This document shows positions 39,906 through 53,143 of a stretch of DNA of 64,000 bases, piece after piece (positions within the stretch are counted from its first letter, which is position 1; every line of letters begins with the position of its first letter). Below the pieces are notes generated by a model. The model saw only the letters and a program-made list of their open reading frames with translations, was not told the DNA's origin and ran no database searches. Source of the DNA: an uncultured delta proteobacterium (lineage in GTDB: Bacteria; Myxococcota_A; UBA9160; SZUA-336); the NCBI GenBank assembly GCA_963704165.1, contig CAVPHD010000012.1:150532-214531 (forward strand), in the 5' to 3' direction. The position numbers and the translations under genes are program-made.

Positions 39906-41134
39906 AACGGGCGACGAAGACGGGAAGGGAGTCCGCGACCTTGCGCGCGCTCCAGGCGAGCGCGCTCGCGCTCTCGGGCATGGCGCGCGTCGCCGCGGGT
40001 GACGCGCCGATCGACCAGGTCTACAGCTCGTACAGCTTCTCGAGCTACGACGAGGACGAGCTCGAGGCGTCGAAGGGCTTGCCGCTCGCGGATGGCGAGC
40101 GCTACTCCGTCTCGACCCATCAGGCGATGCTCGCCGCGCCACTCACCGAACGCATCGACTTCTCGCTCGAAGTCACGCACGAGACGATGAGCGGCGCGAG
40201 CCCCTGGTACACGGTTCCCGACGCGGGTGGAGCGCCGATCCAGGTCATGAGCGGCGCGACGATCGAGGATTCGCGCGACGACTTCCTCCTGCAGGCGAAC
40301 TACTTCTACGAGAACGCGCGGATCGGGCTCTCGAGCGGCTACTCGGGCGAGAACGACTACACCGCGATCAACTTCGGTTTCAACGGCGAGACGCACTTCA
40401 ACGAGAAGAACACCACGCTCTCCGGCGGATTCGGCGTGTCTCTCGACGAGATCGATCCGACCGACGCCGACCTGTACGCGACGCGGCCGAGTCACGAGTC
40501 GAAGCAGACCTATTCGCTGAACGTCGGGCTCTCGCAGATCCTGAACCGCCGCTCGATCGTCCAGTCGAATGTCTCCTACGCGTTCGGCACCGGCTACCTC
40601 TCGGATCCGTACAAGCAGGTCTTCGCCGTCGGCGGCGTGTTCTTCTCGGACGAGCGCCCCGACGCGCGCCACGGGCTCTCGTGGCTGACGCGGTATCGCC
40701 GGCACATCGAGGAATTCGAGGCGACGGTGCACCTTGGGTACCAGTACTACTTCGACACCTGGGGAGTCAGCTCGCACACGATCGAGGCCAGCTGGTACCA
40801 GTCGTTCGGCGACAACCTGCAGATCACGCCGACCGTCCGCTACTACACGCAAGAAGAAGCGGACATGTACGTGAACTACCTTCCGCTCGGCGCGACGGGC
40901 GGCGGCGAGTACTCGAGCGACTACCGGCTCTCGAGCTACGGCGCGCTCGGTCTCGGCCTCTCGGGCGAGTACACGCTGCGCACGCGCTGGGTCGCCGACA
41001 TCGAGTGGAAGCTCAAGCTCTCGTACGAGCGCTATCTCTCGAGCGCCGACCTCGCCTTCAACGGCCCGTCGGTGGAAGCTCCCGGGCTCGTGAGCTTCGA
41101 CGTTTTCTCGATCGGGATCCGCGCGGCGTTCTGA
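39896..41134 (+). CDS. DUF3570-family outer-membrane beta-barrel with two flavinylation motifs
   Basis: ETMSGAS and QVMSGAT motifs; ENDY, GYLSDPYK, ERPDAR, DTWG..SHT, SSDYRLS; terminal Phe. Confidence 0.88.
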   Translation: MQLKRATKTGRESATLRALQASALALSGMARVAAGDAPIDQVYSSYSFSSYDEDELEASKGLPLADGERYSVSTHQAMLAAPLTERIDFSLEVTHETMSGASPWYTVPDAGGAPIQVMSGATIEDSRDDFLLQANYFYENARIGLSSGYSGENDYTAINFGFNGETHFNEKNTTLSGGFGVSLDEIDPTDADLYATRPSHESKQTYSLNVGLSQILNRRSIVQSNVSYAFGTGYLSDPYKQVFAVGGVFFSDERPDARHGLSWLTRYRRHIEEFEATVHLGYQYYFDTWGVSSHTIEASWYQSFGDNLQITPTVRYYTQEEADMYVNYLPLGATGGGEYSSDYRLSSYGALGLGLSGEYTLRTRWVADIEWKLKLSYERYLSSADLAFNGPSVEAPGLVSFDVFSIGIRAAF

Positions 41135-41139
41135 CCGAC

Positions 41140-42057
41140 ATGCTGCGCGCGCGTCACCCGTTCCGTGCGATGGGCTCGCCGTGCGAGCTGCACCAGTACG
41201 GCGCTTCCCAGCGCACGTGCGATGCGCTCGCCGAGCGCGCGATCGGCGAGGTGCGCCGCCTCGAAGCGAAGTACTCGCGCTACCGCGACGACAGTGTGAC
41301 CTCCGCGATCAATCGCGCCGCCGGTAATCCCGCCGGAGTCGACGTCGACGACGAGACCGCGGCGCTTCTCGACTACGCCGCAACCGCGTTCCGCTCGAGC
41401 GACGGGCTCTTCGATCCCACGTCGGGCGTGCTCCGCCGCGTCTGGAACTTCAAATCCGCCCGCGTGCCCACGCGCGCCGAGATCGACGCCGTCCTGCCGC
41501 TCGTCGGCTGGCAGCGCCTGTCGTGGCAGCGCCCGCGCCTGGTCCTGCCGCGCGCCGGCATGGAGCTCGACTTCGGCGGCTTCGTGAAGGAGTACGCCGC
41601 CGACCGCGTCGCCGCGCTCTGCCGCGAGCACGGCCTGCGACACGGAATGGTGGACCTCGGCGGCGACCTCGCCGTGATCGGCCCGCACCCCGACGGCTCC
41701 CCCTGGATCGTCGGCATCCGCGACCCGCGCGCACCGAAGCACGCGATGGCGAGCGTCCGCCTTCCCGCCGGCGCCATCGCGACGAGCGGCGACTACGAAC
41801 GCTGCATGGTCGTCGACGGCGTCCGCTACACGCACGTCCTCGACCCGCGCACCGGCACGCCCGTCACCGGCCTGCGCAGCGTCAGCGTCGTCGCCGACGA
41901 ATGCCTGATCGCCGGCACCGCCACCACCGTCGCCATGCTCAAGGGCACCGACGGCGGCCCCCTCTGGCTCGACGACCTCGGCCTGCCCAACCTGCGCATG
42001 GACGACGCGGGCGAATTGAGCGGGACACTCGCGAACGCGGAGCGCGACGCAGCGTAG
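41140..42057 (+). CDS. apbE: FAD:protein FMN transferase (ApbE family)
   Basis: FRAMGS, SRYR.DS, FDPT, LDFGGFVKEYAAD, IATSGDYER, HVLDPRTG. Confidence 0.95.
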   Translation: MLRARHPFRAMGSPCELHQYGASQRTCDALAERAIGEVRRLEAKYSRYRDDSVTSAINRAAGNPAGVDVDDETAALLDYAATAFRSSDGLFDPTSGVLRRVWNFKSARVPTRAEIDAVLPLVGWQRLSWQRPRLVLPRAGMELDFGGFVKEYAADRVAALCREHGLRHGMVDLGGDLAVIGPHPDGSPWIVGIRDPRAPKHAMASVRLPAGAIATSGDYERCMVVDGVRYTHVLDPRTGTPVTGLRSVSVVADECLIAGTATTVAMLKGTDGGPLWLDDLGLPNLRMDDAGELSGTLANAERDAA

Positions 42058-42125
42058 GAGTCAGCTCGGACGGCCCGGATCCGCCGGATTGCCGTGCCAG
42101 TGACACGGACGGGTCACTGCGCTCG

Positions 42126-42266
42126 GGTAACTCCTACCGAGGCGCCGCGTCACCGCGCGAAGAGGCGAACAAGGACGAAGACTTCGGTTGACGCCACCTG
42201 TGCCGCGCGAAATGATACCGAGGCACCGAACGGGGTGTCCGGTGCAGCACGGCAAGTTCTGTGCGG
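42126..42266 (+). promoter_or_regulatory. Integron platform copy 1: GGTA-N5-TACC motif, Pc-like promoter and degenerate attI
   Basis: TTGACG(42188)-17 nt-AATGAT; collinear with 46812-46952 at a constant offset of 4686. Confidence 0.65.
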
Positions 42267-42295
42267 ATGGATCGCGCCGCTTCGGAGGATCCAGG

Positions 42296-42988
42296 ATGCG
42301 AATTGGAACTCGTCTTGCCTGTATGCTTGTGGTCAGCGCTGCAGCGATTCCCCTCGCTTCGGCGGCGGCGCCGATCTCAGTTGCCGGGTTCTTCTTTGCG
42401 AACGGTGAAGACGACTTCGCGCAGAACGCCGTTGTCGTCTCCGGTACGGTCACCGGCTCCTCCGCTGCGCAGGTGCGGGCTGTTCTTGTCGGTAGCAACA
42501 TCTCCGACAGCATCCGAGTGATCACGCCAGATATCGCGGTGATTGAAATCACTTTCGGCTCCCGGCAGATTCTCAACTTGGTTGGTCCCGATGCCGTGAT
42601 CTTTGAGCTCTCCGGAGATCAGGCGGTAGGAACGCCGAACTACAACGAACGGTTCGAGGTCAGCGTATTCAACGGCACCAACTTCACCCCATTCCAAGTG
42701 GTGATCCCCCTGGCAACGGGTTTTGACGACCCTGCTGACGCAACGCTCGACGTATTCGCCGTACAGCTCGATCTGTCCGACTACGGGATCGCTGCCGGAG
42801 CTTCCACTGATCGTATCCGCATTCGCTTGGTAGACAATCTCGTCACGAGGTCCGCGGATCCAACAGCAGTCGGGTTGCTCCATTCGGTTCCGGAACCTCC
42901 CACGATTAGCTACGTGGGGGCTGTTCTCTTGATCGGATTCGCAGTGCGCGCGAGTTTCCGGACTCGGAGCCCGCATAACACCCGTTAG
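42296..42988 (+). CDS. Cassette-borne PEP-CTERM surface protein
   Basis: Signal peptide (LASAA); C-terminal VPEP, TM helix and basic tail. Confidence 0.8.
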   Translation: MRIGTRLACMLVVSAAAIPLASAAAPISVAGFFFANGEDDFAQNAVVVSGTVTGSSAAQVRAVLVGSNISDSIRVITPDIAVIEITFGSRQILNLVGPDAVIFELSGDQAVGTPNYNERFEVSVFNGTNFTPFQVVIPLATGFDDPADATLDVFAVQLDLSDYGIAAGASTDRIRIRLVDNLVTRSADPTAVGLLHSVPEPPTISYVGAVLLIGFAVRASFRTRSPHNTR

Positions 42989-42990
42989 CC
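42973..42990 (+). repeat. Collapsed attC (R'' and R' only)
   Basis: GCATAAC-ACCC-GTTAGCC; its R' pairs with the next cassette's R'' (GGCGAAC). Confidence 0.65.
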
Positions 42991-43004
42991 CGACGCGACG
43001 ATGG

Positions 43005-43033
43005 TTGCTTGAATGCGTCGAACGCGTGAGAAT
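43005..43033 (+). promoter_or_regulatory. Cassette-internal sigma70 promoter of a leaderless TA operon
   Basis: TTGCTT-17 nt-GAGAAT, ATG 6 nt downstream. Confidence 0.55.
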
Positions 43034-43039
43034 TCGTCT

Positions 43040-43261
43040 ATGCCGCGCTTCTCCCCAGCCGAGATCGAGCAGCTGAGCGTCGCCGAGCGAGTTCAGCTGG
43101 CCGAGGATATCTGGGACAGCATTGCCGCTGCGCCGGAGATGTTGCCGGTAACGGAAGTCCAACGCGCCGAGCTCGACCGGCGGCTTGCTCTGCTCGGTCA
43201 GGATCCTTCGCGAACCGTCCCGTGGGACGAGGTTCGCTCGAAGCTTTCGCAGGCTCGTTGA
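43040..43261 (+). CDS. Addiction-module antitoxin (TIGR02574-like)
   Basis: LSVAERVQLAEDIWDSI...QRAELDRRL...VPWDEVR. Confidence 0.9.
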   Translation: MPRFSPAEIEQLSVAERVQLAEDIWDSIAAAPEMLPVTEVQRAELDRRLALLGQDPSRTVPWDEVRSKLSQAR

Positions 43262-43551
43262 GCATTCCAGTCGTCTTTACGGCGGCGGCGGAAGCCGATG
43301 TCGAAGAGGCGCATCTCTGGTACCGCGAGCGCGGCCTGGGCCTTGGCGACGATTTTGTGCGAGCGGTCGACGCATCCGTGGCCGGGATCGCGCGGCACCC
43401 GGATGGCCACTCCGTGGTTCACCGCGATGTGCGGCGCGCGCTGTTGCGACGCTTCCCGTACGGACTCTTCTACATCGTTCAGCCCGACCGAGTTGTCGTC
43501 GTGGGCTGCTTTCACGCGGCTCGAGACCCGCGGATCTGGCGATCGCGCTGA
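43258..43551 (+). CDS. RelE/ParE-family toxin
   Basis: AEADVEEAHLWY..GLGDDF, RRALLRRFPYGLFY, FHAARDP; TTGA overlap. Confidence 0.9.
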   Translation: MSIPVVFTAAAEADVEEAHLWYRERGLGLGDDFVRAVDASVAGIARHPDGHSVVHRDVRRALLRRFPYGLFYIVQPDRVVVVGCFHAARDPRIWRSR

Positions 43552-43554
43552 GCG

Positions 43555-43686
43555 GGCGAACGAGAACTTGCAGCTGCCGAGCGCCCGCTTTGGTCTGTCC
43601 AGCACCGGGAACGTCTGGGATCATCGTCGCATCGTTAATCAACAACACGGCGCGGGCTCTCGCAGCTGAAGCCCAAGTCGTTATAC
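43555..43686 (+). repeat. attC site, 132 bp (family A)
   Basis: GGCGAAC...GTTATAC; TTGCAGCTG/CAGCTGAA inner boxes; similar to 48173 and 49711. Confidence 0.9.
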
Positions 43687-43707
43687 GGACAGGAAGGGGA
43701 CGAGAGC

Positions 43708-44640
43708 TTGTCAACAGCGCGAAAGCGCGTCGCGCTGTTCTATGCGCTGACGTTCCTGCTTCTCGCAGCGGTTCCGATTCTTCACGGCCTCTTCGCTGGC
43801 GGGCCAATGAACTTCGCCGCGGCCGGAGCGCGAGCCTCCGTTGAAACGGGAGTGGCATGGACCTCGAACTTGCTGGTCATGGTGCGTCTGTGCCTGGCGG
43901 AGCCAGTGCTCTGGCTGATCGTGTTCGGATCCGCGGTTCCGAGCATCGCGGCGCTGCTGGTGGTCGCCCTGAACCGGTCGGCACTCGGTTCCTTGCTCGC
44001 ACGGCTCGGGCCGCGAGTGCCATGGCGGCCCGCCCTGATGGACTACGGCCTCATCTTCGTCCTCATGGTCGGAGGGCTCGTTGCCGTCTCCGTGCTGAGA
44101 TCGTTCCTTCCGGGCCCGGAGTACGTGCGCCCCGAGAGCTTCGTGGGCCCGGGTCTCGTCGTGGCCGTGCTTGCGGCGGCGCTTCTCGATCAGGGCGCCG
44201 TTCTTGAGGAACTAGGATGGCGCGGGTTCGCGCAACCGGAGTTGCAGGCGAGTCGCCTTAGCCCGTTGGTTGCGGCGATCGTCGTCGGAATCGGATGGGG
44301 CCTCTGGCACGTGCCCCGAGACCTGACCGGCGGGGTCGTCGAGCGGCTCGGTGTTCTGCAGTACCTGCTGCTGTATCTCCCGAGCTTTCTCGCTGGAACG
44401 GTCACGGTGTCCATCATTGCTGCCTACTTCGTGAACCGTGCATCCGGAAGCGTGCTCCCGGCCATCATCGTGCATGGGCTGAGCAATGATTCGGCTGGCA
44501 TCTCCGGGGCCGCAACCATGGAGCTTGCGCTGTCCCCGTATCACCAAGCGACGAAGGCGTTGCCGTTTGCGCTTCTCGCTGTCGGCATCGTTCTTGTTGC
44601 GGGGAAGTCACTCGGCCTTGCTCGACGTAGAGCCGTATAA
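43708..44640 (+). CDS. Cassette-borne CPBP/CAAX intramembrane protease (Abi family)
   Basis: EELGWRG, WGLWH, AIIVHGLSN; the TAA stop lies within R''. Confidence 0.9.
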   Translation: MSTARKRVALFYALTFLLLAAVPILHGLFAGGPMNFAAAGARASVETGVAWTSNLLVMVRLCLAEPVLWLIVFGSAVPSIAALLVVALNRSALGSLLARLGPRVPWRPALMDYGLIFVLMVGGLVAVSVLRSFLPGPEYVRPESFVGPGLVVAVLAAALLDQGAVLEELGWRGFAQPELQASRLSPLVAAIVVGIGWGLWHVPRDLTGGVVERLGVLQYLLLYLPSFLAGTVTVSIIAAYFVNRASGSVLPAIIVHGLSNDSAGISGAATMELALSPYHQATKALPFALLAVGIVLVAGKSLGLARRRAV

Positions 44641-44749
44641 CAAGCCGCTGAGGCTGACGGCCGCCGGCTTCAGTCGCGCGGGCGGTCTCGCTCGACACGA
44701 GTCGTGGTAGGCTTACGCGCGGCCGCAGCTTGGCGGCCATCCGTTCGCA
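44635..44749 (+). repeat. attC site, 115 bp
   Basis: CCGTATAAC is the exact complement of the cassette start GTTATACGG; ends GTTCGCA. Confidence 0.9.
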
Positions 44750-44780
44750 AGGCAGCGAAAGCCGCGAGGAGGCCCACTCA

Positions 44781-45638
44781 ATGCCCCACCCTGCCCTCAC
44801 TCCGAACCGCACGGCGGTGATCACCGGCGGCGCCAGCGGCATCGGCTTTGCTACGGCGGAACGTCTCGTGGCGATGGACCTGAACGTCTGCATCGCGGAC
44901 CATGACGGGGAAACGCTCGGCTCCGCGGCCGACGCACTTGCAAAGCAGGCCGCCAGGGGCGTGGAGTCGATCCTCGCGGTGCCGACCGATGTCGCGCGCC
45001 TTGAGTCGGTCGAGGCGCTCCGGGACGCTGTGCTGGATCGCTTCGGCGAGGTCGCAGTGCTGATGAACAACGCCGGGACGGGCGGAGGCGGTAGCCCCTG
45101 GCAGAACTACGAGGGCTGGCAGCGGGTCCTCGGCGTGAACCTCTGGGGCGTGATCCACGGCCTCCAGGTCTTCACGCAGAGGATGATCGGCCAAGGCACC
45201 CCCTGCGCGATCGTGAACACGGGCTCCAAGCAGGGCATCACCAACCCACCCGGAGATGCCGCGTACAACGTATCCAAGGCCGGGATCAAGAGCTTGACCG
45301 AGAGCCTCGCCCACCAACTCCGGAGTCTCGACGGCTGTCGAGTCACGGCGCACCTGCTGGTGCCCGGCTTCACTTACACGGGCATGGTGAGACGATTCCT
45401 GAAGGAGAAGCCGCCTGCCGCTTGGCTGCCCGAGCAGGTGGCGGAGTACCTGCTTGCAGCGATGGAGCACGGCGACTTCTACGTGCTGTGTCCAGACAAC
45501 GAAGCGACGTCCGAGATCGACTCCCGGCGCATCGAGTGGGCGGCAGGCGACATGACCGAGAACCGACCGGCGCTCTCGCGCTGGCATCCGGATTACCAAG
45601 CCGCCTTTGCGGCCTTCATGGCCAAAGCGCGCGACTGA
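44781..45638 (+). CDS. Cassette-borne SDR oxidoreductase
   Basis: TGGASGIG, NNAG, YNVSK; RBS GAGGAGG. Confidence 0.93.
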   Translation: MPHPALTPNRTAVITGGASGIGFATAERLVAMDLNVCIADHDGETLGSAADALAKQAARGVESILAVPTDVARLESVEALRDAVLDRFGEVAVLMNNAGTGGGGSPWQNYEGWQRVLGVNLWGVIHGLQVFTQRMIGQGTPCAIVNTGSKQGITNPPGDAAYNVSKAGIKSLTESLAHQLRSLDGCRVTAHLLVPGFTYTGMVRRFLKEKPPAAWLPEQVAEYLLAAMEHGDFYVLCPDNEATSEIDSRRIEWAAGDMTENRPALSRWHPDYQAAFAAFMAKARD

Positions 45639-45670
45639 ATCCCACCCGACTCTCGCACGTATCGTTCGCT

Positions 45671-45804
45671 GCCGAACAAGCCGCCGCAGCTGACGGGGCC
45701 ACAGCGCGCTCCAATCAACCTTGGGTAGAGTTCGGCATTGAACTCGTGTGCTTCGAGCGGCCGCTGGCGGCGGGCCCGGCAGCTGAGCGCTGTATCCGTT
45801 GGAC
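45671..45804 (+). repeat. attC site, 134 bp
   Basis: GCCGAAC...GCAGCTGA...CAGCTGAGCG...GTTGGAC. Confidence 0.88.
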
Positions 45805-45831
45805 TGCCCGCGGCGGTACCATTCACGTGCC

Positions 45832-46746
45832 ATGAAGTCATACGTTGGTGTCACAGACTTCGAATGGTTCGAACTTCTTCGTCGCCAGCCAGACCTCGAT
45901 GAGGTGAACTTCTGGCAGCCTGGTGGATCGCGGCAGTTCAAGACGCTTGTCTCTGGCGACCTCTTCTTGTTCAAGCTCCACAGTCCCCGGAACTTCGTCG
46001 TCGGCGGTGGTGTGTTTGCCCACTCCAGCTTGCTACCGATCAGCCTCGCTTGGGCGTCATTCGGGATTGCGAACGGCGTCCAATCGCTCGAAGAAATGCG
46101 AGCGCGAACTTTGCGATACAGGCGCTCGCCGCCAGCCGATCGTGAGGACTTCACCATCGGCTGCATCCTTCTGACGCAGCCCTTCTTTCTTCCAGAGGAT
46201 CGATGGATCGCGGTTCCGGCCGACTGGAGCCCGAACATCGTGCAGGGGAAGACCTATGACCTGACTGTGGAGCCCGGGGCAACGCTGTATCGCCAGCTTC
46301 GAGAAGCACTTCACGGATTGCAGATTCGAGAATCCGAAGAGAATCGATACGGAAGCCCGGTGGAGATTCGTCCGCGTCTGGGCCAAGGATCATTTCGCGT
46401 CGTCGTCACCGACGCGTACGAGAGGCGGTGCGCGATCACCGGCGAGAGAGTCTTGCCTGTACTTGAGGCTGCGCACGTTCGTCCATACGTGGCCGGTGGT
46501 GCTCACTCCGTCGACAACGGACTCCTGCTCCGAAGCGACATCCACACCCTTTTCGATCGCGGCTATCTCACCATCACCCCAGATCATCACATCGAAGTCA
46601 GCACTAGAATACGCGACGAGTTTCACAACGGTCGCGAGTACTACGCATTGCATGGGCGCGAGATCCGGGAACCAGGACGCACCGACCAAGTGCTTTCCGA
46701 ACAGAACATCCAGTGGCACAACGAGCAGATCTATCTGGGTGCCTAG
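45832..46746 (+). CDS. Cassette-borne HNH endonuclease with N-terminal PUA/EVE-like reader domain (putative restriction enzyme); no attC follows
   Basis: RLGQGSFR..V..AY..RCAITG..LEAAHVRP..NGLLLRSDIHTLFD; N-terminal VTD.EWF..NFWQP. Confidence 0.88.
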   Translation: MKSYVGVTDFEWFELLRRQPDLDEVNFWQPGGSRQFKTLVSGDLFLFKLHSPRNFVVGGGVFAHSSLLPISLAWASFGIANGVQSLEEMRARTLRYRRSPPADREDFTIGCILLTQPFFLPEDRWIAVPADWSPNIVQGKTYDLTVEPGATLYRQLREALHGLQIRESEENRYGSPVEIRPRLGQGSFRVVVTDAYERRCAITGERVLPVLEAAHVRPYVAGGAHSVDNGLLLRSDIHTLFDRGYLTITPDHHIEVSTRIRDEFHNGREYYALHGREIREPGRTDQVLSEQNIQWHNEQIYLGA

Positions 46747-46811
46747 CGCGGACGTGCTGGCTCGGCGCGATCACGCCGACGACTCATGTCCATCTTCGCG
46801 GCAGTCGCTTC

Positions 46812-46952
46812 CGTAACTGTTACCGGGGTCCCACCTTTCGGGGCAAGAAACCGAGTGCTGACAAAGGCTTCGGTTGACGAGGCTGTTGCCGCGCGAAATG
46901 ATACCGAGGCGCCGGTCAGGGTGTCCGGTGCAGCACAATATTTGTTGGGCGG
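46812..46952 (+). promoter_or_regulatory. Integron platform copy 2: GTAACTGTTAC palindrome, Pc-like promoter and intact attI core
   Basis: TTGACG(46874)-17 nt-AATGAT; GCAGCACAATATTT-GTTGGGC at 46944, complementary over 12 bp to R'' at 47539-47550. Confidence 0.75.
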
Positions 46953-46967
46953 CGCGATGCGCTCGGG

Positions 46968-47282
46968 TCAGCTGGGAAGGCGGTCTACCCAGTAGCGGGG
47001 TTTTCGACGATCGTGCGCTACCGCGAGGACCTGAACGCGATCGGCGAGCTCGATGTAAACGACCTGGTACGGAAATCGGCGAACGAAGATGCGGCGGATA
47101 TCTCCCGCTTCCACTCCCGGTACCGGAGCTCCGATTCGCGAGTTCGCCTCGATCCTGCTGATCGCAGAATCAACCTCGGCGACAAACTCCATTCCGAGTC
47201 CGATCCGCTGTTCTTCGTACCATCGCGCGGCCTCTGCCAGTTCAGCGTCGGCCTCCTCGCCGATCCAGATCCACTGGCTCAA
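46968..47282 (-). CDS. RelE/ParE-family toxin (inverted cassette)
   Basis: EADAELAEAARWYEEQ..GLG..F, RRFPYQVVY, LAVAHDRRKP. Confidence 0.9.
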   Translation of the reverse strand: MSQWIWIGEEADAELAEAARWYEEQRIGLGMEFVAEVDSAISRIEANSRIGAPVPGVEAGDIRRIFVRRFPYQVVYIELADRVQVLAVAHDRRKPRYWVDRLPS

Positions 47283-47515
47283 CGCTTTGCGAGCCCGCTT
47301 CGGATTCGGTCGCGAACCTCCGGCCAAGGTTTCCCAGGGTCATCACCCGAACGTGAGCGCGCCGCACGGCGCTCGATCTCAGCCGCCCAGGCGGCTTCGA
47401 CGTCCGCATCGCGTGCGCCATCGAGGCTCGCCAACAACTCCGCGGCCAGTTCCGCTCGCTCGGGGAGGTCGAGCTTCAACGCGCTTTCCAAGAGGCGTTC
47501 AGCGGCCTTCGTCAT
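47279..47515 (-). CDS. Addiction-module antitoxin (TIGR02574-like)
   Basis: ALKLDLPERAELAAELLASLD..VEAAWAAEIERR..WPEV. Confidence 0.9.
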   Translation of the reverse strand: MTKAAERLLESALKLDLPERAELAAELLASLDGARDADVEAAWAAEIERRAARSRSGDDPGKPWPEVRDRIRSGLAKR

Positions 47516-47543
47516 GCTGGGCAAGCCTACCCCGAGGAGCGCC

Positions 47544-47671
47544 GCCCAACAAGGCGCTGCACCTGTCCGGCCTGCACGCGCCATCAACGGCGTGGTAGCG
47601 TCGGAGCAAACCGCGCTCAGCCTTTGCCAGCATCGACGGCGGGCCGGCAGGTGAGCGCCAAGCCGTTAGGC
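47544..47671 (+). repeat. attC site, 128 bp
   Basis: GCCCAAC...GCACCTG...CAGGTGAGCG...GTTAGGC. Confidence 0.92.
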
Positions 47672-47689
47672 GGCGGCAAAGAGCATAGT

Positions 47690-48178
47690 TTGGTCTTCTG
47701 GAACCTCCGCAAGCTTCGGGAGTCACTCACGGGTCCGCTGCCACCTAGGGAGCAAGTCTCCTACTTGGTGGGGATCTTTGTCATCTGGGGTCTGCCGATT
47801 CCGACCGCGATCGCACTGGGATCGGCTTCCCAGGACGGTCTTGCTTCTGACCTGGCCGCTCTCGGGATTTCGCTCGTCGGCGTTCTCCACGCATATCGAA
47901 GCAACGGCGGTTCGAGCGGCGAAGAGTTCGCCGTGCGTCTCATCGCGGTCGGATGGGTCGTCGGCGTTCGCTTTACGGTGACGCTCGCCGGATTGTCCCT
48001 TCTCGCTATCTATCCGGGCCTGCCGGTCGCGATCGAGATCGCATCCAAGTTCAACGTCGAAATCGAGCCCAACCAGAACTCCGCGGCAGTGGTGCTCGTG
48101 TACACCGCATTGGCAGTGCAGGCGCTCTACTGGTGGGTCGTCGGCCGTCAGATGCGGAGCATCCACGCCGCCGCCTAA
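47690..48178 (+). CDS. Cassette-borne hypothetical membrane protein
   Basis: About four TM segments; AYRSNGGSSGEEF motif; the TAA stop lies in R'' GCCTAAC. Confidence 0.75.
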   Translation: MVFWNLRKLRESLTGPLPPREQVSYLVGIFVIWGLPIPTAIALGSASQDGLASDLAALGISLVGVLHAYRSNGGSSGEEFAVRLIAVGWVVGVRFTVTLAGLSLLAIYPGLPVAIEIASKFNVEIEPNQNSAAVVLVYTALAVQALYWWVVGRQMRSIHAAA

Positions 48179-48304
48179 CAAGGGCTTGCAGCTGACGAGC
48201 GCCCGCTTCGGTCTGTCCACCAGCTGGGGTGTCTGGCATCATGGTCGCAACATCAACCAACAACGCGTGCCGGGCTCTCGCAGCTGAAGCCCGATACGTT
48301 AGGC
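48173..48304 (+). repeat. attC site, 132 bp (family A)
   Basis: GCCGCCGCCTAAC is the exact complement of the cassette start GTTAGGCGGCGGC; ends GTTAGGC. Confidence 0.93.
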
Positions 48305-48321
48305 AGCACGCCACGCCCCGG

Positions 48322-48350
48322 TTGCTTGCTTGTATATACAGATGTATGCT
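48322..48350 (+). promoter_or_regulatory. BrnT cassette promoter with palindromic operator
   Basis: TTGCTT-17 nt-TATGCT with TGTATATACA palindrome in the spacer; GTG 6 nt downstream. Confidence 0.65.
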
Positions 48351-48356
48351 TGCGGG

Positions 48357-48572
48357 GTGCGCTTCGCGTGGGATCTCCGCAAGAGTGCAGAGAACCTACG
48401 AGTGCGCGGATTCGACTTCGAATTCGCGACCCTGGTCTTCGAGGGTGCCACGCTGGAGCGTCAAGACGAACGCCGGGACTACGGAGAGCATCGAGTTATC
48501 GCGATCGGATTGGCTCAGGGGCTCGCGCTCACCGTCGTCTACACAGATCGGGTCGAGGCCGGCGTTGCGCGG
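48357..48572 (+). pseudogene. brnT: 3'-truncated BrnT-family toxin; brnA absent
   Basis: MRFAWDLRKSAENLRVRGFDF..F...DERRDYGEHRVIAIG..LTVVYTDR, then runs into an attC without the RIISAR end. Confidence 0.8.
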
Positions 48573-48626
48573 ACCCAACAGGGCGTCATCAAACTTGCAT
48601 GCAGTTTGGGAACCACGACGTTAGGC
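48573..48626 (+). repeat. Short attC site, 54 bp
   Basis: ACCCAAC...AAACT(T)GCA/TGCAGTTT hairpin with a bulged base...GTTAGGC. Confidence 0.65.
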
Positions 48627-48642
48627 GGACGACTCAAGAACA

Positions 48643-48897
48643 ATGCAGAATCTCGGATTCGAGACGCTTGTCACTGTCCTCATACCGGGTCTACTGATCT
48701 TCACGGCCCTTGCACTGCTCGGAGACTTTGCCAATCCGGAGCTCGGCCTGACGGAAGTTGCACAAAGGCTTGCTGCAGTGGAGTGGCAGGCGAGCCTCTT
48801 GGCCTTGGTTGCCTCCGCATTTCTTGGCGCGCTTCTGGCTTCGACTCTCGGCTTTGTTGAGGCGTACGTTCTCGAACCGTTCAACGCTTGGCGGTAG
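48643..48897 (+). CDS. Cassette-borne small membrane protein, possibly truncated
   Basis: Two hydrophobic segments; about 140 bp remain before the attC. Confidence 0.55.
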   Translation: MQNLGFETLVTVLIPGLLIFTALALLGDFANPELGLTEVAQRLAAVEWQASLLALVASAFLGALLASTLGFVEAYVLEPFNAWR

Positions 48898-49035
48898 GCG
48901 TCACCGGCCGGAGCATGGCTAACACTCGGAACGGCGTGTACTTGGTGTTTGCGGCGTGGCACGACCTATCGAACTCTGACCCAGTTCAGCACGCCGCTTC
49001 CCATGTGCGGTCGATTCAACAAGCCTGACGTCGCC

Positions 49036-49171
49036 GCCCAGCAAGGCGCTGCAGCAGACGCGGCGCATGTTCCCGGCAGTGGCGGTGCGTGATAGCTTTG
49101 GAGCAACACCATTCGGGCGTAGGCTGGCGTCGGCGGCGGGCGCCGCGCAGCTGAGCGCCTAGTCGTTGGAC
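49036..49171 (+). repeat. attC site, 136 bp, with mutated R'' (AAC to AGC)
   Basis: GCCCAGC-AAGGCGCTGCAGCAGAC...GCAGCTGAGCG...GTTGGAC. Confidence 0.85.
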
Positions 49172-49262
49172 TGCGCGAAGATCGATCCGGGGTGCAGCGC
49201 GAGTCGGCAAGCGACGATGAGCGCGGTATTCTGAGCGCATTGGCTGCAACGCGGAGGAGCCG

Positions 49263-49475
49263 GTGAAGTTCCGCATTCTCATCGAGCCGGACGAAGATGG
49301 AGTCGTTGTCGCGACAGTTCCGTCGCTTCCCGGTTGCGTGTCGCAGGGCGCTACCCGCGAAGAAGCGGTCCGGGACGTCCGCGAAGCGATCGAAGGCTAC
49401 CTCGAGAGCCTTCGCGAACGCGGCGAGCCGATTCCGCCGAGCATTCTCGAAGAAGTGATCGACGTCGCGGTGTGA
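49263..49475 (+). CDS. hicB: HicB-family antitoxin (short form)
   Basis: EPDEDG..A.VPSLPGCVSQGATREEA...REAIEGYLE. Confidence 0.92.
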   Translation: MKFRILIEPDEDGVVVATVPSLPGCVSQGATREEAVRDVREAIEGYLESLRERGEPIPPSILEEVIDVAV

Positions 49476-49698
49476 GCACGCTGCCGAGGCTTTCGGGGCG
49501 TGAGGCCGTCGCCGCATTTCGTCGCCTCGGGTACGAGGTCGATCGTCAGAAGGGAGCCACATCATTCTTCGGAATGCGCGCGCCCCGTATCGGCGCCTGA
49601 CCGTGCCTGACCATCGGGAGCTTGCGAAGGGCACTCTTCGATCCCTCATTCGCGAAGCGGGCATCACGGTGGAGGAGTTCACCGCACTGCTCTCCTGA
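49472..49698 (+). pseudogene. hicA: HicA-family toxin with a 1-nt deletion in the QKGSH motif
   Basis: LPRLSGREAV..F.RLGY..DRQKG, then SHIIL..RLTVPDHRELAKGTLRSLIREAG in a shifted frame; G-run at 49552-49554. Confidence 0.85.
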
Positions 49699-49710
49699 AG
49701 CCGGCGCGCA

Positions 49711-49842
49711 GGCCAACAAGGGCTTGCAGCTGACGAGCGCCCGCTTTGGTCTGTCCACCACCGGACGCGTCTGGCATCATCGTCGCATCGTCAACCAACG
49801 ACGCGGCGCGGGCTCTCGCGGCCGAATCCCGATCCGTTTGGT
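49711..49842 (+). repeat. attC site, 132 bp (family A)
   Basis: CGCGCAGGCCAAC is 12/13 complementary to GTTGGACTGCGCG; ends GTTTGGT. Confidence 0.88.
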
Positions 49843-49852
49843 GGAGTAGGGG

Positions 49853-50212
49853 ATGATCTCACAGCGCAACAGCCTGAAGATCGCGCTCTGGGTCGCCATT
49901 GTCGGTCTGGTCCTCGCCGTCATCCCCATCTGGCCCTACGGGTATTACACGCTACTTCGCCTGGTCGTCAGCGGGGTATCGCTGTTCGCTCTCGTCGTTC
50001 TCGGCGCTCAAGATACGTCGCGTACAGTAGGACTCACGGTTGTCACTCTGCTCTTCAATCCATTCATCGCTGTCGAATTGACTCGAACGATTTGGTTACC
50101 CATCGACTTGGGGGTCGCAGCTTGGTTCGGCTACATCGTGACTCAGCAGCTGTCGGCACCTCCATCGAACGACGAACCCCTTCCACGCGGTCCCGGTGCA
50201 GGTTCCACCTAG
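49853..50212 (+). CDS. Cassette-borne DUF6804-like membrane protein
   Basis: WPYGYYTLLR, LFNP, W.PID motifs; residual R'' ATCGAAC at 50164-50170. Confidence 0.75.
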   Translation: MISQRNSLKIALWVAIVGLVLAVIPIWPYGYYTLLRLVVSGVSLFALVVLGAQDTSRTVGLTVVTLLFNPFIAVELTRTIWLPIDLGVAAWFGYIVTQQLSAPPSNDEPLPRGPGAGST

Positions 50213-50263
50213 CACTCATCAGGCCCGGTGGCGTCAAGTGACGAGGATCATCCGCCCGCCGCG

Positions 50264-50608
50264 CTACCGCTTCGTCGAGTGACCGATCCGAAGTAGGTGG
50301 CCGTTCGGGTCGCGGATGCTGAACTCGCGGATGCCCCAGGGTTGGGTGGCGATCGGGTCGACGATCGGGACGTCGTGCTCGCGGCAGACGGCGTGGACGA
50401 AGTCGGCGTCGTCGACGAGGACGCAGCAGGTCGAGGGCGTGCGGGGCTCGGGGGACTTCGCGAAGAAGAGCTCGGCGGCGCCCGCGCGCACGGCGCCGAA
50501 GCCGTCGCCGCGGGTCCACGCGATCTCGAGGCCGAGCACGTCGCGGTACCAGGCCTGCGTCGCGGCGACGTCGGCGACGGGAAGCTGCGGGATCACCATT
50601 CGCCACAT
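50264..50608 (-). CDS. VOC/glyoxalase/bleomycin-resistance family protein
   Basis: P.LPVADVAAT.AWYRDVLG, PWGIREFSIRDPNGH. Confidence 0.9.
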   Translation of the reverse strand: MWRMVIPQLPVADVAATQAWYRDVLGLEIAWTRGDGFGAVRAGAAELFFAKSPEPRTPSTCCVLVDDADFVHAVCREHDVPIVDPIATQPWGIREFSIRDPNGHLLRIGHSTKR

Positions 50609-50640
50609 GGAATGAGTATCGGCCGATCGGGCGCCGGGGC

Positions 50641-51438
50641 TCAGAGCGCGCCGGGCGGGACCGCGATTCGGGTCGGCACGCCCTGCCGCTCGATCAGGAC
50701 TTCTCCGCCGGCGCGCGGATCGAGCGCGCGGAGCGCGTCGAAGGCGCGCGGGGTGTTGTCGACCTTCACGCCCGCGACCGAGATGACGACGTCGCCGCTG
50801 CGCAGGCCGATCCGCTCGAGCGTGCTGTCGGGACGGACGTCCATCAGCGCCACGCCGCGAAGTTTTCCGGACGCGTCCTGCACCGGCGCGTAGCGCGCCT
50901 GGCCCGAGAGCGTGACGAGGAGCTGCTCGGCGCTCGCGGCGGCGGGCGCGTCGTCCTCGAACGCGGCGCTTGCGGGGACTTCGCTCGCGTTTGGCCCGCG
51001 TGCCGCGCGTGCGCTCGCGCTCACGCGCGCGCGAGCCGGGGGTCGGGCGGCGGGCGAGTCGGGATCGATCGCGTCGCGCGGATCCGAAGCGCCTCGACTC
51101 GGAGCGGACGCCGAAGTCGCGGCGTTCCCCGACCCACGTGCCGTCGAAGCCGAAGCCGTGCCGGCCAATGCGAGCCGCTCGAGCCGACCGGAGAGCGCGA
51201 GCACGACCCCGTCCTTGCGGATCTCCTCGACGCGCGCGCCGCCGATCTCGTCGCCCGCGCGCACGACCGAGATCACGCCGGAGCTGTCGATCACCGCGAT
51301 CGAGCGCTCGGGCTGCGGCGAGACGACGGTGCCGACGAGGTGCAGCGGAAGCCGCGTCTCGGGAAGCGGCGGCTCGGCTCCCGCGCGAAACGCGAGTGCG
51401 GCGACGAGCACGAGAATCGCCGAGAACTCACGCACCAT
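50641..51438 (-). CDS. gspC: GspC-like protein (HR domain plus PDZ)
   Basis: LPLHLVGTVV..SIAVI, GDEIGGARVEEI..D.V.L HR domain; GLRSGDVVISVAG PDZ. Confidence 0.8.
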   Translation of the reverse strand: MVREFSAILVLVAALAFRAGAEPPLPETRLPLHLVGTVVSPQPERSIAVIDSSGVISVVRAGDEIGGARVEEIRKDGVVLALSGRLERLALAGTASASTARGSGNAATSASAPSRGASDPRDAIDPDSPAARPPARARVSASARAARGPNASEVPASAAFEDDAPAAASAEQLLVTLSGQARYAPVQDASGKLRGVALMDVRPDSTLERIGLRSGDVVISVAGVKVDNTPRAFDALRALDPRAGGEVLIERQGVPTRIAVPPGAL

Positions 51439-53143
51439 CGCGCCCCCCCGCTTCGATCGCCTCGATCAGGATATCGGCCGTGATCAGCTCGGGCAGGACG
51501 TGCGGCGCGTCGGGCGCGTCTGGAAACCAGAGCACGTAGAGCGGCACGCCGGCCCGGCCGAAGCGCGCGAGCTCGCGGCGGATCGACTCGTCGCGGCGCG
51601 TCCAGTCGGCCTTCAACACGGCGAAGTGTCGGCGCGCGAGCTCGGCCTTCACGCGCGCGCTCGCGAGCACGATGCGCTCGTTCGCCTTGCAGGTCAGGCA
51701 CCAATCGGCGGTGAACTCGACGAAGACCGGGCGGCCGTCGCGAAGGTGCGCTTCGACCGCGTCGGGCGAGTACGACGATGCGCTCGCGGCCGAATCCGAA
51801 GGCGAACCGAGATCGGCGGCGTCCGCCCACGAGAGCGGCCGCAGAGAGAAGAGCGCCGCCAGCACCAGCGAGCCCGCGATGACGAGCCCGCGGCCGCTTC
51901 GCTCGGCCGACTGGAGCACGCCGAAGACCCAGGCCGCGAACGCGAGCGCGAGCATGAGACCGAGCGCCGACGCCAGCGCGTCGATCCCGGTGAGCCGGCC
52001 GAAGATCCAGAGCAGCCAGGCGGCGCTCGCGAGCAGCGCGAAGCCGAGCACGACGCGGAGCTTCCCCATCCACGCGCCGGAGCGCGGCAGGAAACGCGCG
52101 AGTCCGGGAACGAGCGCCACGCAGGCGAGCGGCAGCGCGAGACCGATGCCGAGCGCGGCGAAGATCGCGAGCGTCTCGACGGCTCCGCTCGCGAACGCGA
52201 CGCCGACGGCGGTGCCGAGAAACGGCGCCGAGCACGGCGTGGCGAGCGCCACGGCGAGCAGCCCGTCGAAGAACGATCGGCTCGCGCCCGCGGCGTTCGC
52301 GCCGACGCTCGCCAGACCCGCCGGCGCGGCGACGTCGAAGACACCGAAGAGGTTCAGCGCCAGCACGACCAGGAGCCCCGCGATCGCGAGCGAGTAGGCG
52401 GGCTCCTGGAACTGGAACCCCCAGCCGACGGCGGTTCCCGCGCCGCGAAGCGCGATCACGAGCGTGGCCAGCGCGAGCATCGTGACGAGCACGCCGGCAA
52501 GGTAACCGGCTCCGTGCGCGAGCACCTCGCGCCGGCCTCGGCCCGCGAGGTCGGCGAGCGCGAACGCCTTGAGCGCGAGCACCGGCAGCACGCACGGCAT
52601 CAGGTTCAGCAGCATCCCGCCGAGCAGCGCGAGCGCGAGCACGCGCGCGAGCGGCGGGCTCGGAGGAGTGGATCCGCCGAACGCCGCGGCCAGGTCGCGC
52701 TCGAGCGCGATCCGGCCCGGGACGCAGACGTTGCTGCACGCGAGGAAGCGCACGTCGGCGCGCGCCATCCGCGCGCTCGCGCGCCAGGGACCGAGCTCGA
52801 GCGGGGCCGCGAGCAGCACGGTTCCCGCGTAGCCCGTGCTCGTGACGCCGACCTCGGCATCGGCGAAGGCGACGGGCTCGGGGTACTCGGTCGGGCCGAC
52901 GCGCGCGCCATCGACCGCCCATTCGACCCGCGTCGGCAGGCCGACCTCGCCGACCTCGGCGCCGTAGATGTGCCAGCCGGAATCGATCGCGAGCCGGACG
53001 CCGAGCCGCGGCGCATCGCCGCTCTCGAGCACGATCTCGCCGCGCACCGGCAGCGGCTCGAGCTCCGGCTCCGCGCGGCCGAACGTGGGCGCCGCGCACA
53101 CGAGCGCCAGGGTCGCCACGGCGAGGATCGGCTTCGCTCCCAT
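51428..53143 (-). CDS. dsbD: DsbD-family protein-disulfide reductase
   Basis: [46 protein letters not shown]. Confidence 0.92.

Follow-up and report, generated by a model that had tools for sequence, protein, structure and literature searches.

We analysed a 64,000-nucleotide stretch of DNA (the window; positions 150,532 to 214,531 of contig CAVPHD010000012.1, assembly GCA_963704165.1) from an uncultured delta proteobacterium of the lineage Myxococcota_A, UBA9160, SZUA-336, whose assembly (G000) is 84% complete. Between apbE and a convergent gene of the glyoxalase family, the window holds an island of 11 integron cassettes that begins directly after the apbE stop codon, with five cassettes behind one copy (unit 1) and six behind a second copy (unit 2) of a short element with the features of an integron head, namely a recombination site (attI) and a predicted cassette promoter (Pc). 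At neither unit is an integrase gene (intI) adjacent to attI, as it is in a complete integron. The cargo consists of toxin-antitoxin pairs, a CAAX protease, a dehydrogenase, an HNH nuclease, and proteins without a recognised family (Table 1). The cassette recombination sites (attC) were sought with our own matrices trained on sites of relatives, a heuristic distinct from IntegronFinder which missed some altered-arm sites on another contig (C8); it found seven full attC sites in the window, and three collapsed or short sites were recognised by eye. With seven attC sites and no neighbouring intI, the array is an attC-site cluster without an integron-integrase (CALIN), for which at least two such sites are required.

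Table 1. Features of the island, its flanks, and associated loci (window positions unless a contig is named)
Feature	Position	Strand	Basis or remark
apbE (ApbE family), host flank gene	41140-42057	+	Pfam PF02424; syntenic in six congeners
Stub ORF 1, VTRPCHWHGNPADPGRPS, stop, then LL	42061-42117	-	Possible relic of intI 5' end (weak)
Unit 1, integrase-free integron head (palindrome, predicted Pc, decayed attI core)	42120-42266	+	Sequence comparison
Imperfect palindrome, unit 1	42126-42138	none	GTAAC-N-GTTAC type
Predicted Pc, unit 1	42188-42216	+	TTGACG-17-AATGAT
Weak match to candidate LexA-type direct repeat, unit 1	42208-42223	-	Flanks -10 hexamer; rank ~170 in genome
Overlapping promoter match, candidate PintI, unit 1	42241-42212	-	
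Decayed attI simple site, unit 1	42247-42264	+	Core 3/10 against intI-linked copy
Cassette 1: secreted protein	42296-42988	+	
Cassette 2: antitoxin (PF09720) and ParE toxin	43040-43686	+	attC 43555-43686
Cassette 3: CAAX-type protease	43708-44749	+	attC 44635-44749
Cassette 4: short-chain dehydrogenase	44781-45804	+	attC 45671-45804
Cassette 5: HNH endonuclease (45832-46746)	45798-46746	+	No attC, unit 2 in its place
Stub ORF 2, MDMSRRRDRAEPARPR, stop	46743-46793	-	Stop overlaps HNH stop codon; unsupported as intI relic
Unit 2, intact integrase-free integron head inside array	46806-46950	+	Sequence comparison
Palindrome, unit 2	46812-46824		
Predicted Pc, unit 2 (internal promoter)	46874-46902	+	
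Overlapping promoter match, unit 2	46927-46898	-	
attI simple site, unit 2	46933-46950	+	Identical to intI-linked copy up to G/TT
Cassette 6: ParE toxin and antitoxin, antisense to Pc	46944-47671	-	attC 47544-47671
Cassette 7: protein without known family (ends 48178)	47665-48304	+	attC 48173-48304
Cassette 8: 5' part of brnT cassette fused to short attC-like site	48298-48626	+	Site 48573-48626, by eye
Cassette 9: small ORF 48643-48897	48620-49171	+	attC 49036-49171
Cassette 10: HicB-like antitoxin and frameshifted partner	49165-49842	+	attC 49711-49842
Cassette 11: DUF6804 protein (49853-50212)	49836-50260	+	Truncated attC-like end
Host flank gene (glyoxalase/VOC family) closing island	50264-50608	-	
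intI region beside SOS mutagenesis gene	G000:C8:64625-65569 (L006)		Also L022, L026
TTTCG-N6-TTTCG sites	G000:C4:276858; L130-L139; G000:C8:64575; G000:C3:566078; G000:C5:114258		

The two units and the resident integron

The two units align without gaps at an offset of 4686 (42126-42266 with 46812-46952) and share 99 of 141 positions, against a mean of 37.6 and a maximum of 53 in shuffles (n=2000), which bears out the collinearity without indels claimed in the original prediction. The shared elements also stand where it had placed them: an operator-like motif that is an imperfect palindrome, TTGACG (42188 and 46874) followed after 17 nt by AATGAT (42211 and 46897), GGGTGTCCGGTGCAGCAC at 42233 and 46919, and an 18-nt block that begins GGGTGTCC. 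As to the two tandem platforms that were proposed, both units are real copies of an integron head, but they are not equivalent (10/10 core positions in unit 2, 3/10 in unit 1), and the second lies inside the array, where the attC of the HNH cassette would be expected.

In the assembly, BLASTN and a profile of the unit found three copies and no more: both window units and a further one on contig C8 (C8:65803-65944). The C8 copy stands beside an intact intI, lying about 230 bp upstream of a divergent gene (TIGR02249, 468 bits, no stops) that is the only intI match above the family cut-off in this genome. The translated IntI shows the tyrosine-recombinase motifs. Homologs of the unit adjoin intI also in four related genomes (G007, G008, G010, and G011). 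Homology among the three copies of G000 stops at the G/TT triplet (the slash marking the crossover point), where the differing cassettes start. Since one copy adjoins an intact intI and homology ends at this triplet, the units are, judged by their sequence, the attI of the genome's own integron together with a predicted Pc.

Compared with the intI-linked head from the -35 hexamer to GTT, unit 2 is nearly unchanged (71/73; 27/29, 34/34, and 10/10), with an upstream half at 67% identity, and unit 1 keeps 24/29 and 30/34 positions in the promoter part and 3/10 in the core. Environmental attI sites have been defined by a simple site (PMC3146285). That of unit 2 comprises an L box (46933-46939), a 4-nt spacer, against 5 nt in attI1 and attI2 as printed in PMC12901181, and an R box (46944-46950), with crossover after G46944. 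Unit 2 shows everything looked for in such a site, that is, an L box, a spacer, GTTRRRY, homology ending at G/TT, and a first cassette that complements R''; this cassette begins at G46944, and its first 12 nt are complementary to its own R'' at 12/12 positions. Unit 1 does not show this simple site, with three of ten core positions matching.

The HNH cassette begins at G/TT 45798 and has the anatomy of a delta-attI cassette, with an attC core before the gene and an attI, here unit 2, replacing its attC. Partial matches to its expected inverse core lie directly after the stop and at 46797-46806; an 8-nt match at 46799 is found also in the intI-linked leader, making the junction between the HNH gene and unit 2 ambiguous. 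The closest HNH homologue (82%) is cassette-like, sharing the three bases after the stop (TAG-CGC) and continuing into an R''-like motif, recognised by eye.

The intI-linked array on C8 and the window array have attC types in common at 76-86% identity and one cassette in common: the 5' 271 bases of the brnT cassette in the window are 270/271 identical to the cassette in first position of the intI-linked array. The window copy breaks off at 48568, five bases past a G/TT triplet inside the gene, and is joined there to a short attC-like site, which may reflect IntI activity at a secondary site. The C8 brnT/brnA cassette has a short attI-like end (G000:C8:66545-66572, L006) and no attC. Further into the intI-linked array (G000:C8:67450-74278), a catalase-like gene and an ABC-transporter-like operon occur as cassettes and insertion sequences lie inside attC sites (all labelled by eye); this array apparently runs from the end of C8 into the end of C3.

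Predicted promoters and candidate regulation

Four sigma-70-like sites were found in the 8.5-kb island (41900-50400; 0.9 +/- 0.9 expected), all of them in the units, each of which has one match pointing towards the cassettes and one overlapping match on the minus strand. The units thus have, at the sequence level, a predicted Pc: a -35/-10 pair of sigma-70 type that points into the array and is conserved among copies. The minus-strand match shares the -10 region and may be the integrase promoter (PintI).

Upstream of lexA, 11/11 genus genomes share a conserved direct repeat, TTTCG-N6-TTTCG, which also precedes imuB-like and dnaE2-like genes; among its highest-ranking sites are those before imuB-like and recA-like genes and before a gene about 2.5 kb ahead of recA. 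This repeat is a candidate for the LexA box of this lineage. (In the recA comparison the row of G006 was out of register, and its position in that tree is disregarded.) In other integrons, LexA boxes overlap the -10 of PintI (PMC8876359). The match in our units is weak, ranking about 170th genome-wide, and it is poor in the linked copies of G010, G011, and G003, so LexA control of the units is a lead. The palindrome was considered as a LexA box and rejected, being absent upstream of lexA and recA.

In G000, G007, and G006, the gene directly downstream of intI, and in line with it, is an imuB-like or dnaE2-like SOS mutagenesis gene; in other congeners intI is found at other loci. In G003 (C562, L021), a toxin-antitoxin-like gene pair lies between intI and the Pc/attI unit, in a leader of about 770 nt.

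Solo units in related genomes

A search of 61 genomes with unit 2 hit seven of them and gave real matches in three congeners, those in G030, G037, and G048 being rejected as chance matches of only 25-32 nt. A model of the unit matched six of 32 family genomes, all within the genus, and intI gave one match each in 7 of the 12 genus genomes. The 17 copies that we aligned comprise six linked to intI and 11 solo copies without it (two in G000, one in G007, three each in G008 and G010, and two in G003). The nine solos outside G000 lie at unrelated loci in four congeners, each of which has a single intI.

Most solos come after the end of an unrelated host gene or of a tRNA gene, with which they share their orientation. 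The alignment shows the G/TT core kept in 8 of the 11. Unit 1, G008:C192, and G003:C765 keep the promoter part with a decayed core, and the latter two lead ordinary genes, with no attC detected. In five of nine solos examined, the first cassette is complementary to R'' at 10-12 of 12 positions at the AAC that opens the attC; of the four that lack this complementarity, unit 1 is one, a second is mis-anchored close to the end of a contig, a third has a truncated attC, and in the last no attC was detected. Complete integrons stand at different loci in different congeners.

A second class of attI occurs in the same two arrangements (E ~1e-5 for each), in G006 as a mid-array copy that ends a 236-bp stretch beginning at an attC core, and in G005 as a solo directly after a host stop codon; the intI of G006 looks broken. 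Scans with the unit pattern gave no match in viral contigs, two stretches in metagenomes, both intI-linked, and seven stretches in a genome collection, one of them a chance match upstream of an ordinary gene.

One solo head (G010:C14:5352-5482, L067) lies directly after a tRNA gene and leads a low-GC island in which no attC was detected. The solos G010:C29 and G008:C192 were considered as orthologs and rejected, their flank gene being common and their position relative to a repeat different. A hairpin upstream of some solos was likewise rejected as part of the platform, since it is a dispersed REP-like repeat of about 100 bp (L105-L124), with 15, 9, and 5 matches in G010, G008, and G007, and two short ones in G000.

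Service in trans and alternative explanations

We concluded, with a probability of roughly 0.6, that both units are integrase-free copies of the genome's own integron head, attI plus predicted Pc, and that the one intact IntI, whose gene lies on a different contig, likely serves them in trans. Of the two options in the original prediction, loss of intI from two integrons or integrase-free platforms served in trans, the second fits best, with trans service and promoter activity as its conjectural parts. The C8 IntI would insert attC cassettes at unit 2 and move cassettes between the window array and the intI-linked array, and the predicted Pc of each unit would transcribe the cassettes behind it. 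Given its decayed core and the collapsed attC of its first cassette, unit 1 has likely retired to a promoter-only role. The second insertion point that the original prediction foresaw may instead be the only one: the core of unit 1 looks dead, and unit 2 may thus be the sole live point. Unit 2 itself probably came into the array with the HNH cassette, as that cassette's recombination site in the form of a long attI-type end, and such ends are a possible route by which heads are copied; unit 1 may alternatively derive from a duplicated integron minus its intI.

Three indirect signs point to service in trans. At the orthologous solo site of G008:C195 and G010:C32, the flanks match at 91% across 2358 bp, and the leader together with the solo unit matches at 76% across 257 bp; neither site has intI and the two species have no cassette in common there, which is simplest if their ancestor already lacked intI there and cassettes changed later. 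The second sign is the brnT cassette common to the window and the intI-linked array. Third, the three heads of G000 form the only well-supported clade of the tree (96/96), and identity from -35 to GTT is 75% within genomes (19 pairs) versus 66% between them (117 pairs), a difference that a permutation test overstates, the genomes being kin.

Several points weigh against this conclusion. The differing cassettes at the orthologous solo site could also have arisen by deletion, or ahead of independent intI losses, and the common brnT cassette could derive from an attC x attC insertion or from a common outside pool. Cassette 6, the first behind unit 2, runs antisense to Pc, and the conservation of TTGAC is partly built in, copies having been found and anchored with the unit model. 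The core is decayed in 3 of the 11 solos, one of these matching weakly (E 5e-4); no solo copy was found in G011, which has intI, and G005 has a solo and no intI was found in its assembly, which is 74% complete. Two likenesses suggest former integrase genes: the minus strand beside unit 1 reads ADPGRPS-stop-LL up to the apbE stop, a string that only 39 of 20000 10-mers ending in CTA bettered on a matrix of IntI N-termini, and 34 nt in the flank of the G007 solo resemble the 5' end of the G007 intI (1/1000; one of 54 comparisons).

The unit 1 stub and the G007 likeness both point towards origin by deletion of intI, and the first rival, which we consider unlikely, goes further, taking the units as inert relics of whole integrons that lost intI and the arrays as frozen CALINs whose motif conservation predates the loss. 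Loss of intI is a listed origin of CALINs (PMC4889954), and the decayed core of unit 1, together with a stub that resembles an IntI N-terminus ending at LL, would be expected of a relic. Complete integrons at differing loci among congeners indicate an element that moves and could leave relics. Against this, unit 2 retains 71/73 identity with the linked head despite the drift of its upstream half to 67%, the orthologous solo carries different cassettes in two species, and a cassette is common with the intI-linked array at 270/271. A remnant of intI or its leader was found beside 0 of the 11 solos (best E 0.09 for DNA and 0.4 for protein).

Both tiny minus-strand open reading frames (ORFs) on which the original prediction based its stubs exist, ending 66 and 70 nt before the palindrome. 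That of unit 1 may be a relic of the intI start; with its position left free, 113 of 3000 random 260-nt windows score as well, so about one such case would be unsurprising among 11 solos. That of unit 2 is at chance level (1045/20000 and 1746/3000 controls as good), and the suggestion that two integrons lost intI at the same place is not borne out. The two stub peptides resemble each other (4/1000 shuffles as good), with a marginal match at the DNA level (114/2000), and the stub stops lie 62-66 nt from the anchor, versus 184-244 nt for the LLD motif in five compact intI-linked copies. The IntI frame of such copies (L001, L022, L023, L024, and L025) continues without a stop for about 30-80 codons ahead of the LLD motif and may encode a variable N-terminal extension. 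A nucleotide match of the unit 1 flank to the G003 intI was dismissed as chance, since it lies inside apbE. Unit 1 may, on this comparison, descend from a duplicated integron that lost intI, an origin that is compatible with present use in trans.

It is rather improbable that unit 2 is just the end of an unusual delta-attI-type cassette (attC-HNH-attI) that excises and moves the HNH gene and is no routine insertion platform. Such cassettes are known from class 1 and 2 integrons (PMC12901181), and the start of the HNH gene's cassette at G/TT without an attC of its own, the partial inverse-core matches, the cassette-like homologue, and the short delta-attI-like end of the C8 brnT/brnA cassette in the same genome are all in keeping with it. 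This explanation nevertheless leaves unaccounted for unit 1 and the nine solos behind host genes or a tRNA gene, the 8-nt match that recurs in the intI-linked leader blurs the very junction on which it draws, and an intact attI stays a target whatever its arrival.

Very unlikely, in our estimate, is that the copies are portable promoters kept solely for expression of cargo, with unused attI cores. The three solos with a decayed core and preserved promoter part, two of them heading ordinary genes, would fit such a role, but 8 of 11 solos keep G/TT and 5 of the 9 examined have a precisely joined first cassette. An assembly artefact, in which a misjoin copied the C8 head into this contig, is extremely unlikely: apparent indel errors do occur near contig ends, but the three copies differ from one another, their upstream halves being 61-70% identical, and the same layout is found again in congeners whose genomes were assembled separately.

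Cassettes and flanks of the island

Cassette 1 encodes a protein with a PEP-CTERM-like tail and no match in Pfam and NCBIfam searches, and ends in a collapsed site (R''-4 nt-R', 42973-42990). The frameshifted partner in cassette 10 is one that we take to be HicA-like. Neither unit nor intI was found in the interval between apbE and the glyoxalase gene in six congeners, so this lineage gained the island. In the three closest congeners (L062, L063, and L064), the interval contains ada-like, 2OG-Fe oxygenase-like, and other genes (labelled by eye), all of them absent from this island; the interval is thus a variable spot. A sequence common to the right end of the array and a G007 array was considered as an element end and rejected, as it reads as a truncated attC type. 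An Rfam scan of positions 40000-52000 gave no match.

Comparison with known systems and significance

The window array falls within the definition of a CALIN given in 2016 (PMC4889954), differing from the arrays treated there in that full copies of the resident attI, with a predicted Pc, stand both at its head and within it. In that paper, CALINs split from an integron are treated as cut off from Pc, and their origin and the expression of their genes are left open. Insertion at genomic attG sites is another origin that has been described (10.1101/2022.09.11.507474), and service of CALINs in trans has been stated as possible (PMC9668308; 10.1101/2025.06.18.660453). IntegronFinder, as described in PMC4889954, matches attI sites and promoters of classes 1-3 only, and heads like our units would therefore be missed.

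The nearest likeness is Shewanella phage M16-3, in which the same attI heads the array of a complete integron and a CALIN; in the part of PMC9892861 that reports it, this is a single passing case with no promoter or function analysed, whereas the layout described here is chromosomal, multi-copy, present in five related genomes, and inherited at one locus. In delta-attI cassettes such as attC-aadB-delta-attI2(-238), an attI segment that measures up to 244 bp and recombines takes the place of attC (PMC12901181), and a cassette with a 244-bp attI2 end was excised by IntI1 in assays (PMC12901181). Unit 2 behind the HNH gene shares this anatomy. The examples given in PMC12901181 come from class 1 and 2 mobile integrons with their own intI and have segments 100% identical to the donor attI, in contrast to our array, which has no intI, an upstream half at 67% to the linked head, and similar heads behind host genes. 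In attG insertion and in single attC sites lacking integron-integrases (SALINs), IntI likewise acts away from its own locus and makes cassette clusters elsewhere in the genome; as described (10.1101/2022.09.11.507474), attG sites are degenerate (GWT) and depend on nearby host promoters, unlike our units, which are true attI copies with their own predicted promoter. The C8 locus is a sedentary chromosomal integron platform (intI, PintI, attI, and Pc) with the same attI and Pc, the same attC types, and one cassette in common with the window, whose two units differ in having no intI in cis.

CALINs, one attI-headed phage CALIN, and long delta-attI cassettes were thus already known, and multiple dispersed Pc+attI heads appear to be new: in the literature at hand, mostly non-subscription papers, we came across no report of genomes in which several full Pc+attI heads are dispersed alongside a single intI. 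More tentatively, and with some doubt on our part, we propose that these genomes could house a distributed integron, in which one IntI gene would serve a network of dispersed Pc+attI heads. Such heads would multiply as attI-type cassettes and stay matched to the resident attI through selection or gene conversion; they would pass by descent into new species, taking on other cassettes meanwhile, and would end as promoters alone. Elsewhere, many CALINs may likewise be live platforms with expressed cassettes and with heads that have gone unseen because tools search only for attI of classes 1-3. Searching any genome with its own intI-adjacent attI would be a cheap test, and one IntI, a native attI, an intact solo, and a decayed solo make up a defined set for further study.

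These results may have implications for how CALINs, often viewed as remnants or stray insertions, are understood, as arrays without intI that carry true copies of attI and a predicted Pc could serve for the capture as well as the expression of cassettes. With several heads in a cell, good expression would be less confined to the cassettes nearest one Pc, and extra heads, likely loaded by one enzyme, would give the cell several points of capture and expression.

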